Assembly: GCA_965205405.1 (NCBI GenBank)
Contig: OZ242169.1
Span: 2,697,552 to 2,761,551 of the forward strand
DNA length: 64,000 nt
Reading direction: 5' to 3'
From: Gammaproteobacteria bacterium
Lineage (GTDB): Bacteria; Pseudomonadota; Gammaproteobacteria; Eutrophobiales; Eutrophobiaceae
Shown here one piece after another: positions 2,545 through 9,220 of the stretch. A program made the translations under genes and the position numbers. Below the pieces are notes generated by a model. That model was given only the letters and a program-made list of their open reading frames with translations. It was not told the origin of the DNA and searched no databases. How positions within the stretch are numbered: the first letter of the stretch is position 1; every line of letters starts with the position of its first letter.

Positions 2545-2751
2545 ATGAATTTCACGGCAGTTGTTGAGCATTGCAAGGAAACGGGGCTATATGTAGGCTA
2601 CGTGCCAGGTTTTACGGGCGCCCATTCCCAGGGAGAAACCTTGGATGAGCTAAATAAAAACATGCAGGAAGTCATTACTTTGTTACTTGAAGATGGCATG
2701 CCTGAACTGGAAACTGAATTTATAGGCACGCAACAAATCGCAGTAGTCTAA
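2545..2751 (+). CDS. hicB: HicB-family antitoxin (short, no DNA-binding domain)
   Basis: YVGYVPGFTGAHSQGETLDEL...MQEVI motif; directly upstream of hicA. Confidence 0.85.
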   Translation: MNFTAVVEHCKETGLYVGYVPGFTGAHSQGETLDELNKNMQEVITLLLEDGMPELETEFIGTQQIAVV

Positions 2752-2754
2752 GAC

Positions 2755-2985
2755 GTGTCAAAAGTCCCTGTTCTTAAACCGCAGGAAGTGATGCGCTTAC
2801 TGAACTCTGCAGGTTTCAAAGAAACAAGGCGCCGCGGCTCACATAGGCAGTTTCGTCATCCGGACGGCAGAGCAACAACTATTCCATTCCATAAAGGCCG
2901 TGATATTTCTCCAATTTTACTGCGGCAAATCGCAAAAGATGTTGGGCTTACCGTGGATGAGCTTCTGCGTGGGAACTCCGATTAA
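2755..2985 (+). CDS. hicA: HicA-family mRNase toxin
   Basis: GF...RRGSHRQFRHPDGRATTIPFH...LLRQIAKDVGL motif. Confidence 0.9.
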   Translation: MSKVPVLKPQEVMRLLNSAGFKETRRRGSHRQFRHPDGRATTIPFHKGRDISPILLRQIAKDVGLTVDELLRGNSD

Positions 2986-3050
2986 TAATCTATCCCAATG
3001 CGTTTAAATGGAAAAACCACAAAATCTTCATGAATACAGCCCCAAAATAA

Positions 3051-3146
3051 TGTTGGGAAAATGTTAGAATAGACAACATGCACAACAATTTACGTTAATA
3101 AAAACAGCAAGTTATATTACAGTTTCTACTCCGGCCATCGGTACTG
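3051..3146 (+). mobile_element. Second degenerate att-like island end
   Basis: TGTTGGG/TGTTAG boxes, TAAAAACAGCAAGTTA, then tRNA-end-like ACTCCGGCCATCGGTAC; same layout as 2183-2279. Confidence 0.45.
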
Positions 3147-3280
3147 ATAACAACCCACTGGTTATCACGGGTTTTAAGCAGTCTATCTGGAAACTCAACG
3201 TCCTCTCTTGGGAGATTTCACTGCTGAGTTTGAAGCCAGGGGGGATTAGTTGTTAAAAAATATCAAAATACGCAGGTCAA

Positions 3281-3568
3281 TCATTTTAAATCCACAAATA
3301 CATTCGGATGTTGTTCGGCAATTCGCAGAAGGGCAATAGCCGGGCCTTGCGGCTGCCGCCTCCCTTGTTCCCAGTCCTGCAGAGTACGCAGGCTTACCCC
3401 GAGCATGCCGGCAAACGCCGATTGTGACAATTCTAACTTTGAGCGAATGGCTTTTGGTTCTGACGGCACAGAGAGCCTGGTCGTCTTAAGTTTTGTCTTA
3501 CCCTTCTTGTACTCCTGAATTTCTTTAAGGCCTTCGAGGATTTCAGTTCCGATATCACGATTTGTCAT
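3281..3568 (-). CDS. XRE HTH antitoxin (HigA/YiaG-like)
   Basis: IRSKLELSQSAFAGMLGVSLRTLQDWEQGRRQP HTH; overlaps upstream toxin. Confidence 0.85.
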   Translation of the reverse strand: MTNRDIGTEILEGLKEIQEYKKGKTKLKTTRLSVPSEPKAIRSKLELSQSAFAGMLGVSLRTLQDWEQGRRQPQGPAIALLRIAEQHPNVFVDLK

Positions 3569-3890
3569 GCTTAATGGCCTCCGCTATTTGTTTGAGTGTA
3601 TGGCCGGGAATCGTTGAGCGTTCCGATTTGTCATAGAGCGTCAACATCCAGATTTCATGATCAGACGGTTTCCAGTAATAAATCACTCGAACCCCGCCAC
3701 TTTTACCACGGCCACTTCGCGCCCAGCGTACTTTCCTTACTCCACCGGAGCCACGGACCAGGTTGCCGGTATCCGGTTTCATCATCAGATACGATTGCAA
3801 CGCTCCGTATTCATCATCAGTCAGATAGTCTGGGAGTAACCGGGTAAATAAGCTGGTTTCCATAAAAACAGGACGTGGAAGTTCGCTCAA
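3555..3890 (-). CDS. RelE/HigB-family toxin (start may be ATG 3863)
   Basis: GSGGVRKVRW...GKSGGVRVIYYW...IWMLTLYDK motif. Confidence 0.85.
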   Translation of the reverse strand: MSELPRPVFMETSLFTRLLPDYLTDDEYGALQSYLMMKPDTGNLVRGSGGVRKVRWARSGRGKSGGVRVIYYWKPSDHEIWMLTLYDKSERSTIPGHTLKQIAEAIKHDKS

Positions 3891-3932
3891 GGCCTGCAGC
3901 TTGTCAATCTACTAGAAGAAAATAAAATTACT

Positions 3933-3961
3933 TTGACATTAAACCAACAGTATATTAAAAT
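3933..3961 (+). promoter_or_regulatory. Sigma70 promoter upstream of abiF leader
   Basis: TTGACA (3933-3938), 17-bp spacer, TAAAAT (3956-3961). Confidence 0.8.
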
Positions 3962-3967
3962 TGTTTT

Positions 3968-4020
3968 TAATAACAGCTGCCACGCCTCTCACTGAAGCGC
4001 TACCTTGGCGGCTTTTTTTT
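3968..4020 (+). ncRNA. Candidate small structured RNA (abiF-associated antitoxin RNA) ending in an intrinsic terminator
   Basis: Stem AGCTGCCA/TGGCGGCT enclosing a 23-nt loop, then T8; lies between a strong promoter and the abiF ATG. Confidence 0.6.
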
Positions 4021-4035
4021 GCCTGGTGATTATAT

Positions 4036-4944
4036 ATGGAATATACAAAACCTGCTTGTTCAGAAGAAGAACATTTAAGGATTTTGGAAGAACGAGGGCT
4101 TCTGATACCGGATCCTGATAAAGCTGTCCACTATCTCAAGTATATTGGTTATTATCGGCTAACAGGGTATTGCCTCCCTTTCCAGTGTGGTGAAAAAGGA
4201 GATCATGCTTTTTTAAATGGGACAGCATTTGATGATGTGCTCAGGCTATATCTCTTCGACAGAAAACTCAGGTTGCTTGTACTGGATGCGATTGAGGAAA
4301 TTGAAGTTGCGTTTCGAGCAGTTCTTTCAAACACTATGAGTCTAGCACATGGCCCACATTGGTATCTGGATAAAAATCACTTTGGAAACAGATATGGGAA
4401 TAAAGGAGGCCGGCCATATGACCACGAAAAATTACTTCAAGAAATAGATAACGCCGATAATGCCTCTCTTAGACATTATCGCAGCACATATTCTGGCCCT
4501 GAATATCCACCTAGCTGGATGGTGATAGAGGTTCTTTCTTTCGGTACCTGTTCTATATTATTTGCTCACATCAAAAAGCGTCAAATAGCATTAGTCAGCA
4601 ATAAATTGGGATTGGAACCCAAGCTCTTGGTATCTTGGATGCAGGGCCTTGTTGTTTTGAGAAACATATGTGCTCATCATGGTCGTCTTTGGAACCGAAA
4701 ATTTCCCCATACTTTATCTACCCGGGGGAAAGTTCCGGAAGATTTGTTTGGGAATTTTGCTCAAAGTAAAATGTTCTACGAGTATGCCTGTCTAATCATG
4801 TATTTTCTGAAACTCATTTCTCCAGAAACAACTTGGGCAAAAAAATTATCGAAGCTCATTACAGAACATACTAGCCTCAATATATCTGACATGGGATTTC
4901 CAGAGGACTGGAAAAATAGAATTATTTGGAAAAATTACCTATAG
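4036..4944 (+). CDS. Abi_2/AbiF-family HEPN protein (abortive infection)
   Basis: IGYYRLTGY, LYLFDRKLR, IEEIEVAFR, PPSWMVIEVLSFG and HEPN RNICAHH motif; AT-rich. Confidence 0.9.
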   Translation: MEYTKPACSEEEHLRILEERGLLIPDPDKAVHYLKYIGYYRLTGYCLPFQCGEKGDHAFLNGTAFDDVLRLYLFDRKLRLLVLDAIEEIEVAFRAVLSNTMSLAHGPHWYLDKNHFGNRYGNKGGRPYDHEKLLQEIDNADNASLRHYRSTYSGPEYPPSWMVIEVLSFGTCSILFAHIKKRQIALVSNKLGLEPKLLVSWMQGLVVLRNICAHHGRLWNRKFPHTLSTRGKVPEDLFGNFAQSKMFYEYACLIMYFLKLISPETTWAKKLSKLITEHTSLNISDMGFPEDWKNRIIWKNYL

Positions 4945-4969
4945 GAAACGAACAGAACAATATTTAATC

Positions 4970-5257
4970 ATGAAAAAAATAACCACAGACAATATCTTTG
5001 AGGATATCGGTTTCGATAAACAGGAAGCCGCCAACATGAAATTCCGTGCGGAATTACTGCTGGAAATCCGGGAATACATCCGTAAGAAGGGCCTCAAGCA
5101 GAGGGATGCCGCTGCCTTACTAAGTATCAACCAGCCTGAAGTCAGCGCACTGATGAACGGTCATATCTTCAAATTCAGTATCGATGCTCTAGTGAATATG
5201 TTGGCCAGGGTGGGGAGGGAACTGAAAATTACCACACGGCCTAGGAAGGCGGCTTGA
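4970..5257 (+). CDS. Orphan XRE/HTH_37 antitoxin-like regulator
   Basis: NIFEDIGF...GLKQRDAAALLSINQPEVSALMNG..KFSIDALVNML motif; no cognate toxin ORF adjacent. Confidence 0.8.
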   Translation: MKKITTDNIFEDIGFDKQEAANMKFRAELLLEIREYIRKKGLKQRDAAALLSINQPEVSALMNGHIFKFSIDALVNMLARVGRELKITTRPRKAA

Positions 5258-5344
5258 GGCGTGTTATTCACATGAATTGAATTACTTATTTTCGAAATTT
5301 TTGTGACCAGATAGATATTTCTTGAGTGGTGCGGCAACCTTTAT

Positions 5345-6383
5345 CTAGAAGTTATCCTTGTAAACCATACCTTCCCGCATGACGAAAACGACTTTTTTCA
5401 ACTCGTTAATATCAGCCAGGGGGTCAGCGGTAACGGCGATCAAATCGGCAGACAGGCCTGGCTGCAGACTGCCCACCTGATCTTCCATGCCGAGAGCGGC
5501 GGCGGCGTTAACAGTTGCAGTCTCAATCGCTTCCATTGGTTTCATCCCAATTTTGATCAATTCCTGGAATTCACCGGCATTATCACCGTGTTCAACCACG
5601 CCGATGTCCGAACCGAACGCGAGCGTAAAACCACGCTTATGTGCTTCCTGCGCAGAGTACGGTTGTTGCTTGATAGACAATAACCGGTTCAGAATCGGGT
5701 CAGGCAGCCAGCCTGTCGTGCCTGAACGTACTGCCGGAATTATAAAAATTGATTGCATCTGCCCCGCGCTTGACCTGCTCGCGTACGGCGCGCCGGCAAT
5801 CATCCGCCCCATTACAGACCCCTTCCGGCCCAATTACTGCTTCTACCTCTGCGCGGTACAGCCCCGTACGTGATTTTCCTGTGTGTGAAATCGGGCTGCC
5901 GACGGCAATAATGCGCGGCCCCGGTAACCTGTGTTCACGGGTAGCGCGACGCAAGGAATATATCGCTTCCTCGTGGGCGCGCCGACCGGTGCCCAGGTCC
6001 AATACTGTGGTAAATCCGGCCTCAAGACTTAGCCGGGCGAACTCTGTCGCCCTTATAGCCAGATCTGCAGAAGTTTCCGTAACAACACGCAGGGATCCAC
6101 CTGGTGTTAACCGGGAGGTAAGGTGGACATGTAAATCGATTAGTCCGGGCAGGACAAAGCAACAGGACAGATCAACCACCCTGCCATTGGAAGGGTTTGT
6201 AAATCCATCCTCAATCCTGCTGACTTTGCCATTTTCTACGATAATGGTCTGGTCCGTCTGCACGCCCTCGCCGGGCACGGCCAGCAAGCTTCCGGCATGG
6301 ATTATCAATACCTCTGCCTGGCTTTGCGCTGGCTCAAACAGGAAAAGCCAACAACAAATGGCTATGATTAACTGCCGTTTCAA
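5345..6383 (-). pseudogene. Secreted metal-dependent amidohydrolase, split by internal deletion and frameshift
   Basis: N-half 5700-6383 has LPGLIDLHVHL; C-half (about 5345-5715, other frame) has AFGSD...ATVNAA...ADLIAV; central HAHG/EHG segment absent. Confidence 0.75.
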
Positions 6384-6583
6384 GTCAGAAACTCCAACTG
6401 ATGGATGCGCCTATTGTCCTGTTTGTGGAAAAAGCTGCCATCCCTGTTGAACTGTGTCCGTGTTATCCGAACTGCTTAAACAAATTTATTGCCTATATCA
6501 TGTAAACTGAACATAGAAATTTCACACGACAGTCAGACTACATTTACAGTATAGGAAACTCTACTTTCCCTCGGGGATTTATA

Positions 6584-7449
6584 ATGATTACCGGTCCTAC
6601 TTCCCATAGGTATATTTCCCAGCGCCTGCGCCTGCACTATGTTGACTGGGGCAATCCACCGCGCTACCGTTGTTGCTGGTACATGGAAGCAGGGACCATT
6701 GCCGTAGCTGGGACTGGGTCGCGCGCGAACTGGCACAGGACTGGCACGTCATTGCGCCCGACCTCAGGGGTCATGGCGATAGTGACTGGTCACCGGATGG
6801 CACTTATTCGATGTCGGCTTTTGTCTATGATCTGGCCCAGTTGATACACCAGCTTGAACTGCGGTCGGTCACAATTGTCGGACATTCTCTGGGTGGTTCC
6901 GTTTCATTGCGCTACACGGGTCTGTATCCGGAGGCCGTACGCAAACTCGTTGCTATTGAAGGATTGGGATTAGCGCCGGAAAAGCAGGTGAAACAGGAAA
7001 CCATACCTATGGTGCAGCAACTGCGTACCTGGATAGAAGAAAGGCGGCAGTTGGCGGGAAGACAACCGAAACGCTACAAATCGTTGGCAGAGGCTTACCG
7101 GCGCATGAAGTCCGCAAACAGTTATTTGTCGGATGAGCAGGCGCGCCATCTCACCGATCACGGCATAAACCAGAACGAAGATGGTACTTACAGTTGGAAA
7201 TTCGATAACTGCCTGCGCGTTATGCCGCCTGTGGACCTGGAGCCGGAGGTCGTCAAGGAGCTTTGGGGTTCGATTACCTGTCCCACCCGTTTGATCTACG
7301 GTAAGGACAGCTGGGCATCCAACCCGGCAGAAGACGGCAGACTGGATTATTTCCGCAATGCTGAGGTTTCCCTGTACGAAAAAGCCGGCCACTGGCCACA
7401 CCATGATCAACTCGAGCAGTTTGTAGTAGAATTGCGTGAGTTTCTGTGA
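6584..7449 (+). pseudogene. Alpha/beta hydrolase with a 1-bp frameshift near 6657 (real or sequencing error)
   Basis: SQRLRLHYVDWGN in one frame continues as PLLLVHGSRDH...GHSLGG...GHWPHHD in another. Confidence 0.75.
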
Positions 7450-7541
7450 TTACCTTAGTTGCCTGTTATATGCTACAGGTGTATTTCAACAGTATGGAAA
7501 TGTCTGTGTTTGCCCTGTCATATGCAAAAAAGGCGTCAGGG

Positions 7542-8879
7542 TCAAGACGAGGATGTTGCGATGGATGTGGTTGGATCACTCGGGTCCCGCTCAGGCCCAG
7601 ACGCTCCCTGACTACCGGACAGCGCTGCAACTGCCACACCGGTAATCCGTGCGGCTACCCGGGCCTCGCCATGCGTGAAAGCGGGTTCGTAATAGCTGAT
7701 ATCGCCGTCCGTCATACCCGCATTCCTGCACAGGCCGCGCCATTCCCTTTCGATGACATCAAGCATCGCCTTTAGCATTTTCACAGCCGTATCCTGTGCT
7801 ACGCCGAAATACGGCGCCGCATCAACAGCCGCCTCTATGGAGGCCGCATTGCCGCTCAGTTCACTGATGCCGGTCTTGAGATGCGGGTGACGTAGCGGTT
7901 GCGGATTGATATCAAAGGCAGGCGACAACCGCCAGCGGTTGTTGCCGGCATAGAGAAATCCGTGGTTCTGCAGGTGATCATCATTGTTGGAGACCAGAAT
8001 ATTAAACAGGATCCGGCGGTACAACTCATGCAGTTGCTGTTCCGGCTCTGCGCAATGAGCAACCATCATGTCGGCAATATCAGTGTAGTAGACAGGACCC
8101 GGGACTTCCCGTCCGATGAAGGTTCTGGCAGAGATGTAGGGAATGCGCTGCCGGCCGTTCCGGTCGAAGCGGGCAATGATAGCGACCGGCTTATCGGTGT
8201 TTTCCAGTCCGATACGGGCGCGGGCCGCATTGATGCCGGTTCTGCCGGCCAGGTGCAACGTTGCGACCTCCGCCCGCTCAACCGGCGCCTTGTCATGCTG
8301 TGATGTGAACTTGATGATGGACAGTACCCCGTCATCATCCAGATTCGATTTAGGGCGCGCCCCGCCCAGTGAGCTGACGTAGCCCTGTAATTGGGCGATG
8401 ACTTCTTTTTCGAGTGGCGAGTTCGTCTCCCAGGCATGCGCCAATCTGCGCAGTTCCGGCAGATCGGCAAGACGCAGCAGCGCCGGCGTTTTGTCTGACA
8501 GGAAGACACCGTCTTCATCACGGAAGCGTAATGCGCCCTGCCGGGTCAGGTCAGCCGCCATGATGAGGTAATCAATCTCATCCGCGCGCCGGCCCAGCGT
8601 CGCATTAATCAGTGTCCGCCCCCAGGCATCGGGGGACGCATCGGCAATCGGGTCGGGCAAAGCCAGCCCCGGCTTGTCCCTGACGCCTGTGCTGAAAAAG
8701 GGGGCATCGATTAACGGCATGGCAGGGGAGATGGCAAAGGCATCCTGCCGTTCCAGCCATGCAGACGCATAGCGGAACATGCTGAACTGGCGGTCTCCAT
8801 CCTTTTCAAAAACCAGCTCACCCACCTTGACGGCATCACTGCCCAGGACGACTTCGGCGCGAACCCTCCGCTTGCTCAC
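7542..8879 (-). CDS. hipA: HipA-family Ser/Thr kinase toxin
   Basis: SLGGARPK, NNDDHLQNHGF, LSPAFDINP motifs; N-terminal PDAWGR couple domain. Confidence 0.9.
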   Translation of the reverse strand: MSKRRVRAEVVLGSDAVKVGELVFEKDGDRQFSMFRYASAWLERQDAFAISPAMPLIDAPFFSTGVRDKPGLALPDPIADASPDAWGRTLINATLGRRADEIDYLIMAADLTRQGALRFRDEDGVFLSDKTPALLRLADLPELRRLAHAWETNSPLEKEVIAQLQGYVSSLGGARPKSNLDDDGVLSIIKFTSQHDKAPVERAEVATLHLAGRTGINAARARIGLENTDKPVAIIARFDRNGRQRIPYISARTFIGREVPGPVYYTDIADMMVAHCAEPEQQLHELYRRILFNILVSNNDDHLQNHGFLYAGNNRWRLSPAFDINPQPLRHPHLKTGISELSGNAASIEAAVDAAPYFGVAQDTAVKMLKAMLDVIEREWRGLCRNAGMTDGDISYYEPAFTHGEARVAARITGVAVAALSGSQGASGPERDPSDPTTSIATSSS

Positions 8880-9220
8880 GATGTCGCCCCCGCTTCGCCT
8901 AAACCGGCTTTACTCCTGCTGTGACGAATCCGCTTGGGCAGCGATTCCATATCAAACAGAAGCCCGGTATCATCCGTTGCAATATCCAGCAAGTCATGCA
9001 GCCGCCTGATTTCACCCAGCGCCAGCAAGGCCATGGCCAGCGCCTGAAGCGAGACACCGGGTTCTCCTTTTTCCAGCCGGATTACCGTGCCTTGCGACAT
9101 GCGCATCCGGGATGCGAAGTCGGCCAGCGACATGCGGCGTTTGCGACGAGCAATATTGATGTCTCGTCCCAGCCGCGCCAATGCCTTTTTAACTGCAATA
9201 GATTGAGTATTATTTCTCAT
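8876..9220 (-). CDS. HipB-like XRE HTH antitoxin
   Basis: LGRDINIARRKRRMS...RLEKGEPGVS; 4-bp overlap with hipA. Confidence 0.85.
   Translation of the reverse strand: MRNNTQSIAVKKALARLGRDINIARRKRRMSLADFASRMRMSQGTVIRLEKGEPGVSLQALAMALLALGEIRRLHDLLDIATDDTGLLFDMESLPKRIRHSRSKAGLGEAGATS

Follow-up and report, generated by a model that had tools for sequence, protein, structure and literature searches.

A probable AbiF/AbiFr-type type III toxin-antitoxin module with a single-hairpin RNA on a gammaproteobacterial chromosome

The abiF gene and its leader

The window analysed here is a stretch of 64,000 nucleotides (nt) from Gammaproteobacteria bacterium (assembly GCA_965205405.1, contig OZ242169.1), and the module under study occupies its positions 3933-4944. 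The plus strand carries, in this order, a promoter-like site, a short hairpin followed directly by a run of eight T, a Shine-Dalgarno-like sequence and a gene, abiF, coding for a predicted HEPN RNase toxin of the Abi_2/AbiD-F type (Table 1). At the sequence level this is the layout of type III systems, namely an own promoter, an RNA, a terminator-like element and then the toxin gene, and the locus is very probably an AbiF/AbiFr-type type III toxin-antitoxin (abortive-infection) module. Systems of this kind are already known, and the module of the window is a further member of a characterised system. A first-pass annotation of the same DNA, made from the letters alone, had described a type III-like promoter-RNA-terminator-toxin order with an AbiF HEPN protein, and this description is supported by the RNA motif found on the strand of the gene and by the full-length homology of the protein to PDB entry 8VZ6, both presented below.

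The product of abiF matched the Pfam profile PF07751 (Abi_2) over positions 1-184 of 184, with a score of 185 bits against a gathering score of 25.6 (E 2.2e-54), and PADLOC returned an AbiD match (E 2.8e-70). Residues 3-299 aligned with residues 7-300 of chain A of 8VZ6 ("Abi family protein", PbAbiF; E 9.9e-54), the only relevant solved chain, and the AbiF fold is settled by this sequence match. The catalytic residues R209 and H214 align with R210 and H215 of 8VZ6, and the double variant R210A+H215A of PbAbiF was reported as inactive (PMC12373285). Twenty columns are invariant across 16 homologues (the window protein, its paralogue in the same genome and 14 relatives), R209, N210 and H214 among them. 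The Abi_2 protein with an intact RxxxxH motif proposed by the first-pass annotation is thus confirmed, with RNICAH at residues 209-214.

The sequence of 3600-5200 was read directly as a check of the anatomy. The promoter is predicted to start a small RNA near A3969, and a spacer of 15 nt (4021-4035) separates the T-run from the ATG at 4036. The first-pass annotation had placed the promoter, the stem, the eight T, the 15-nt gap and the ATG correctly, but its count of an 8-bp stem plus eight T uses T4013 twice.

Table 1. Features of the abiF module and of its surroundings in the window; A1 is the alignment of leaders and R1 the covariance model built from it, both described in the text.
Feature	Position	Strand	Basis or detail
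Sigma-70-like promoter	3933-3961	+	TTGACA 3933-3938, 17-nt spacer, TAAAAT 3956-3961; 11 of 12 consensus matches
Predicted small RNA of about 52 nt, candidate AbiFr-like antitoxin	3969-4020	+	5' end inferred from the -10 box, 3' end from the U-run
abiF-motif hairpin	3975-4013	+	RF03085 match, covariation in A1, RNAalifold, R1
T-run, 8 T, directly after the outer helix	4013-4020	+	Sequence
Shine-Dalgarno-like GGTGA, 6 nt before the ATG	4025-4029	+	Sequence
abiF gene, predicted 302-residue Abi_2/AbiD-F HEPN RNase toxin	4036-4944	+	Pfam, PADLOC and 8VZ6 match
HEPN catalytic motif codons, R209-N210-I-C-A-H214 (RNICAH)	4660-4677	+	Alignment
HicB/HicA	2545-2751, 2755-2985	+	
RelE-like toxin with MqsA-like helix-turn-helix (HTH) antitoxin	3555-3890, 3281-3568	-	
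Lone HTH_37 gene	4970-5257	+	PADLOC PDC-M64C
HipA with HTH gene	7542-8879, 8876-9220	-	

The hairpin and the abiF RNA motif

The segment AGCTGCCA (3975-3982) pairs with TGGCGGCT (4006-4013) across an interval of 23 nt. The outer helix is formed by 3976-3981 and 4007-4012, with a possible additional A3975-U4013 pair, and A3982 makes a 1-nt bulge on the 5' side. An inner helix of 3 bp joins CGC 3983-3985 with GCG 3997-3999 and closes an 11-nt terminal loop (3986-3996) which starts with CUCU, GCCUCU thus spanning 3984-3989, and a 7-nt bulge, CUACCUU (4000-4006), lies on the 3' side. What had been taken in the first-pass annotation for an unusually large loop of 23 nt in fact holds the inner helix, which covaries among relatives, together with its loops, an arrangement normal for the motif. 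The minimum-free-energy fold includes both helices. The fold of 3969-4020 reached -16.4 kcal/mol (z -2.64), with 3 of 200 shuffles folding as well, and that of the 74 nt from 3962 to 4035 was uninformative (z -1.01); support from the fold energy of the single sequence is weak to moderate.

All Rfam models were scanned against positions 3400-5400 on both strands. The top match was RF03085, the abiF RNA, at 3976-4013 on the plus strand; it takes in all 37 model positions (1-37), and the alignment flags no non-standard pair. The layout of the family was found in full (an outer helix of 6 bp and an inner helix of 3 bp, a bulge of 1 nt, a loop of 11 nt and, on the 3' side, an asymmetric bulge), and GCCUCUCA is the same as the RF03085 consensus, with GCCUCU at the junction of the inner helix and the terminal loop. 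The motif lies on the strand of the abiF gene, its end separated from the ATG by 22 nt, an arrangement repeated at the paralogue and in relatives, and the window RNA therefore shares with RF03085 its length, its two helices, GCCUCU and its place and strand relative to abiF. The first-pass annotation had pointed to a resemblance of the motif to the reverse complement of the leader and had proposed an Rfam search of both strands. The search returned the full-length match on the plus strand, at a score of 25.4 bits which lies under the gathering score of 37, and the resemblance to the reverse complement did not hold, with no RF03085 match on the minus strand of 3400-5400 at E <= 10 and none to our own model R1 on the minus strand of 3000-6000 with filters off.

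Two differences from the family consensus are compensatory, the outermost pair having changed from C-G to G-C and an inner pair from A-U to C-G. Such compensatory pair changes, typical of this clade, explain the low Rfam score along with a G-U pair, a 3' bulge lengthened by 1 nt and differences in the loop, and the structure is intact. The gathering score serves as an operational cut-off and does not describe any feature of the structure. PMC12373285 credits Weinberg et al. 2017 (PMC5737381) with the RF03085 motif; the term 'abiF' does not occur in the main text of that paper.

The source genome (3.47 Mb) was searched both with RF03085 and for Abi_2 genes. At E <= 10, and with 150 of 1264 first-look candidates scored, RF03085 gave two matches, of 40.2 bits (above the gathering score) and 25.4 bits, the hairpin of the window being the second-best genome-wide (E 0.04). 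The genome has exactly two Abi_2 genes, each located directly downstream of one of these matches.

Conservation of the RNA among relatives

A scan of one genome per species led to 15 relative loci, of which 14 code for near-full-length AbiF homologues with 31-68% amino acid identity and one, L010, holds a 65-residue remnant. The closest relatives of the window AbiF come from metagenome-assembled genomes (MAGs) labelled Gammaproteobacteria. With the paralogue locus of the source genome (L016) and the window itself, 12 relatives entered an alignment of 14 leaders, A1, which was built with MAFFT and not fitted to any structure; L007 (long loop insertion), L010 (remnant) and L013 (motif missing) were excluded. 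The covariance model R1 was built from A1, and a second sample was made up of 8 more loci, taken from related genomes and absent from the input of R1.

In A1, 92.1% of the cells pair in the Rfam structure, a share that drops to 38.7-43.7% if the partners are shifted by 1-3 columns, and 8 of the 9 pairs show changes on both sides; none of 500 shuffles reached any of the five measures. The test of covariation across homologous leaders that the first-pass annotation had suggested thus gave a positive result. RNAalifold applied to A1 independently gave the same two helices and the A-U pair 3975-4013. Within the GCCUCU region T18 does not vary at all and C16 and C19 hardly vary, and the ACC of the 3' bulge is present in 8 of 14 rows. 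On this comparison the hairpin belongs to the abiF RNA motif (RF03085).

One might argue that the hairpin has nothing to do with the abiF motif and is either a GC-rich stem arisen by chance or a terminator of a generic kind; the Rfam score below threshold and the z of only -1.01 over 74 nt would agree with this. The hairpin is, however, the second-best RF03085 match of the genome among the candidates scored, one of the only two Abi_2 genes lies at a distance of 22 nt from it, and it shows covariation and positional conservation across phyla. Moreover, the nearest upstream gene (3555-3890, RelE-like) sits on the minus strand, so that the hairpin cannot terminate an upstream gene of the plus strand. 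We assign to a chance stem an almost negligible probability. It is the comparative evidence and the genome-wide Rfam rank, not pattern counts, that set the hairpin above chance.

The surroundings of the hairpin are conserved as well. TAnnTTTG is the -7 consensus of Bacteroidota promoters. In 8 of the 10 non-Bacteroidota rows of A1 a promoter-like site (scores 9-11 of 12) has its end 10-14 nt upstream of the outer helix, the other two (L006 and L009) having poor promoter matches only, and TAnnTTTG ends 11-12 nt before the stem in all four Bacteroidota rows, both counts being taken without a shuffle control. Of the 10 nt that follow the stem, at least 6 are T in 13 of the 14 leaders. Promoter position and T-run are thus conserved across phyla in these sequences, and judging from their positions in relatives, the start of the RNA seems to fall a few bases upstream of the hairpin and its end at the U-run.

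The outer helix and the U-run together look like an intrinsic terminator or attenuator. The hairpin might then be a cis-acting leader only, limiting abiF by premature termination, with neither binding nor neutralisation in trans. The U-run directly after the outer helix, found in the same 13 leaders, would suit such an attenuator, and the C. difficile AbiF system is reported to have a cis, termination-based layer too (PMC12373285). A plain terminator, however, needs no conserved GCCUCU loop, no 3' bulge with a recurring ACC and no covarying inner helix; in both studied homologues the RNA is reported to bind the protein (PMC12373285; PMC12737573); and two loci, L031 and L032, keep an intact motif beside a truncated abiF, which fits an RNA with a function of its own. 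We consider a leader acting only in cis to be improbable, and an RNA which would also act on the protein remains our preferred reading.

A similar hairpin was seen, by eye and in the alignment, just upstream of abiF in all near-full-length loci but L013. The RF03085 model matched 5 of the 16 loci searched (L001-L016), namely L004 (42.4 bits), L006 (36.3), L008 (54.3), L009 (29.0) and L016 (40.2). R1, which scores the window hairpin at 60.2 bits, recovered the hairpin of L007, outside the model, at 24.7 bits (E 0.0012). In the 8 unused loci R1 found the motif directly upstream and on the strand of the gene in 7, the exception being L030, which holds a 65-residue remnant; RF03085 matched 5 of these 8, three of them above its cut-off. 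Elsewhere in the source genome R1 gave a weak match at G000:C1:416609-416648 on both strands (27.4 and 22.5 bits), outside the window and near neither Abi_2 gene.

At shorter distance the hairpin hardly changes. That of L001 (68% amino acid identity) differs from the hairpin of the window by one G-C to G-U change, and that of the orthologue L025 (84% amino acid identity) by one loop base. Near identity of the hairpin in homologues diverged to this extent indicates purifying selection, and this bears on another alternative, in which the window holds a decaying or silent copy whose toxin would be inactive or whose RNA would no longer be made. In favour of decay, the distribution of abiF in the genus is patchy and the gene is frequently broken: of 18 other genomes, 6 gave a match, and three of these (G001, G003 and G012) hold nothing but fragments of 65-107 residues. 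The window copy, by contrast, has an open reading frame (ORF) that is intact and full length relative to 8VZ6, invariant R209, N210 and H214, a promoter scoring 11 of 12 and the conserved hairpin just described, and decay seems to us highly improbable.

Every relative with the motif has one strong R1 match per locus. In the window R1 gave a single match in 3000-6000 with filters off, with no second motif, and Tandem Repeats Finder returned no tandem repeat in 3700-4300 (0 rows). The first-pass annotation had proposed a minimal single-unit antitoxin; the single copy stands, but it is no peculiarity of the window, a single RNA unit being the norm in this sample.

Some related loci depart from the common form. 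Variants with an insert in the terminal loop were found in L028 (2420-2510, minus strand) and L029 (2423-2513, minus strand), both from the genus of the window and with an insert of 37 nt, and in L007 (2329-2406, plus strand), from a cyanobacterial MAG, with an insert of about 20 nt. The insert of L028 and L029 is predicted to fold as an extra hairpin, on both strands of which the two sequences differ. L031 (1844-1902, minus strand) and L032 (1780-1836, minus strand) have an intact motif, with RF03085 scores of 33.4 and 40.2 bits, before a truncated abiF of which 107 and 81 residues matched, and these motifs may be orphan antitoxin RNAs left after decay of the toxin. A decayed copy of the locus of the window is seen in a related genome (L010 2390-2700, and L030), where abiF is cut after residue 65 (83% identical). 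In L010 the promoter and the 5' half of the hairpin are replaced, and the 3' half, the T-run and the Shine-Dalgarno sequence are kept. The L010 remnant lies between two identical 300-nt copies of a direct repeat, 3490 nt apart, and an HTH_37 homologue lies 2.4 kb downstream of it.

Known systems, proposed mechanism and neighbourhood

AbiF with its upstream RNA was reported in 2025 as a type III toxin-antitoxin system in Prevotellaceae and in C. difficile (PMC12373285; PMC12737573). PbAbiF (Zilberzwige-Tal et al., Cell 2025) is described as a HEPN homodimer with RNase activity, each monomer binding one upstream non-coding RNA, AbiFr, which blocks the RNase site, and AbiF has been proposed as the ancestor of Cas13 (PMC12737573, PMC13064643, PMC12373285). 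The AbiFr nucleotides C32 and U38 are reported to be inhibitory. Saunier et al. (PLoS Genet 2025, PMC12373285) report that the AbiF of a C. difficile prophage is toxic both in C. difficile itself and in E. coli, and that its RNA, RCd22, neutralises it in cis and in trans and binds the protein directly.

The window module is closest in form to PbAbiF/AbiFr of a Prevotellaceae bacterium, with a protein homologous end to end, aligned catalytic R and H and a single hairpin RNA directly upstream, and Bacteroidota relatives in our sample (L002, L003, L008 and L011) also carry the abiF motif. It differs in that its clade is gammaproteobacterial, that its outermost pair is G-C instead of C-G and that its 3' bulge is one base longer. 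With AbiFCd/RCd22 of the phi027 prophage (PMC12373285) it shares an Abi_2 toxin with RNxxxH, an upstream RF03085 RNA and a layout in which, as reported for C. difficile, the RNA has its own promoter (there of sigma-A type) and a terminator stands before a toxin gene reached by read-through. In that report RCd22 has two abiF motifs, spaced by 19 nt, as well as a terminator hairpin distinct from them, and gives RNAs of about 100-130 nt, whereas the window has one motif, a predicted RNA of about 52 nt and an outer helix which with the U-run is itself the terminator-like element. The C. difficile gene is further reported to lie within a prophage lysis module, and that of the window lies within a chromosomal toxin-antitoxin cluster. 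The systems ToxIN, AbiQ, CptIN and TenpIN have the same order of promoter, RNA antitoxin, terminator and toxin, with an RNase toxin held by its own RNA and abortive infection as the outcome, but their toxin fold (ToxN/AbiQ, not HEPN) is unrelated. ToxIN-type antitoxins are reported to be tandem repeats which the toxin cuts into units (PMC12373285), and since the window has one unit and no tandem repeat, the locus is filed under AbiF/AbiFr and not under the ToxIN family.

Several points weigh against the assignment to an AbiF/AbiFr module. The RF03085 match has an E of 0.1 in the 2-kb search and stays below the gathering score, and L001 gave no RF03085 match at E <= 10 in a search of 43.6 kb. 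Fourteen of the R1 matches in the search of the relative loci are the model's own input sequences. L013 (2330-2500), a Clostridia MAG with a full-length homologue of 32% identity, has no motif within 170 nt upstream of the gene nor in its 5.8-kb locus, which indicates that an AbiF gene can lack a detectable motif. Promoter-like sites are not in excess in 3300-5400 (4, with 4.2 +/- 1.6 in shuffles), and in a pattern scan terminator-like counts were not above shuffles either. The terminator scanner missed the motif hairpin and called instead a small alternative hairpin at 3998-4010, its limit on loop length excluding the long "loop" of the motif. A search for sequencing runs containing the stretch listed 23 runs, no RNA run among them. 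Finally, toxicity, binding and termination at this locus are all taken from homologues.

We propose the following mechanism, in which termination, RNA-protein binding, toxicity, neutralisation in cis and in trans and phage defence are inferred from PbAbiF and from C. difficile AbiF/RCd22. The dedicated promoter would start transcription a few bases before the 38-nt two-helix hairpin (3976-4013), and the eight U directly after the outer helix would end most transcripts there, giving an abundant RNA of about 52 nt. Occasional read-through would produce the abiF mRNA, with its Shine-Dalgarno sequence and its ATG. AbiF would dimerise, each monomer binding one hairpin RNA which would block the R209/H214 site. 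A drop in RNA supply or a displacement of the RNA, for example upon phage infection, would leave free AbiF to cut RNA, and growth would stop.

A second AbiF/abiF-RNA pair is present in the genome at L016 1495-2473 (G000:C1:2779034-2780012), about 17.5 kb past the end of the window, with an RF03085 score of 40.2 bits; its AbiF is encoded at G000:C1:2779119-2780012. The two AbiF proteins are 35% identical, and the two hairpins differ at 8 of 51 aligned positions (manual count, alignment A3), with 23 nt of the 3' half identical, including most of the single-stranded bulge. The paralogue is flanked by an AAA_21 (AbiEii-like) ATPase and an RNase_T exonuclease. Since the hairpins share these identical 23 nt of the 3' half despite the divergence of the proteins, cross-neutralisation is conceivable, and since the antitoxin hairpin and the terminator share one helix, feedback through AbiF-dependent read-through is conceivable as well. 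AbiF bound to the nascent RNA could thus tune its own read-through, and each RNA might neutralise both AbiF proteins, making of them a cross-protected pair rather than two insulated modules; we put this extension forward as doubtful speculation. If the feedback were true, the module would have a built-in control that the C. difficile system, with its two motifs and separate terminator, lacks.

The locus leaves the known mechanism unchanged. It extends the AbiF/AbiFr systems, currently of interest as proposed ancestors of Cas13, by a chromosomal example with a single hairpin from the Gammaproteobacteria. The Rfam abiF model under-calls this clade, giving the hairpin of the window 25.4 bits and that of L025, the orthologue with 84% identity, 23.0 bits, and routine Rfam annotation would miss the window RNA, its score lying under the gathering cut-off; gene context and a clade-aware model recover such hairpins. 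Two diverged AbiF/RNA pairs in one genome also make a natural system for testing the specificity of antitoxin for toxin.

The abiF gene of the window lies in a cluster of toxin-antitoxin genes extending over 2545-9220. HTH_37 domains are common in antitoxins, and the HTH_37 gene next to abiF raises the question of a type II-like pair in which its protein, not the RNA, would be the antitoxin or regulator of AbiF. The gene is on the strand of abiF and starts 25 nt past the abiF stop, and its product has a Pfam E of 1.2e-23 and the PADLOC match PDC-M64C. Yet tblastn found no homologue of it within 2.5 kb of abiF in 15 full-length loci (L001-L009 and L011-L016), the only one being in the broken L010 locus, and we give such a pair a very small chance. 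Further along, an amidohydrolase (5345-6383, minus strand) appears to be split into two overlapping ORFs in different frames, 5700-6383 (Amidohydro_1 positions 1-120 of 345) and 5345-5833, which may reflect a frameshift or a pseudogene.

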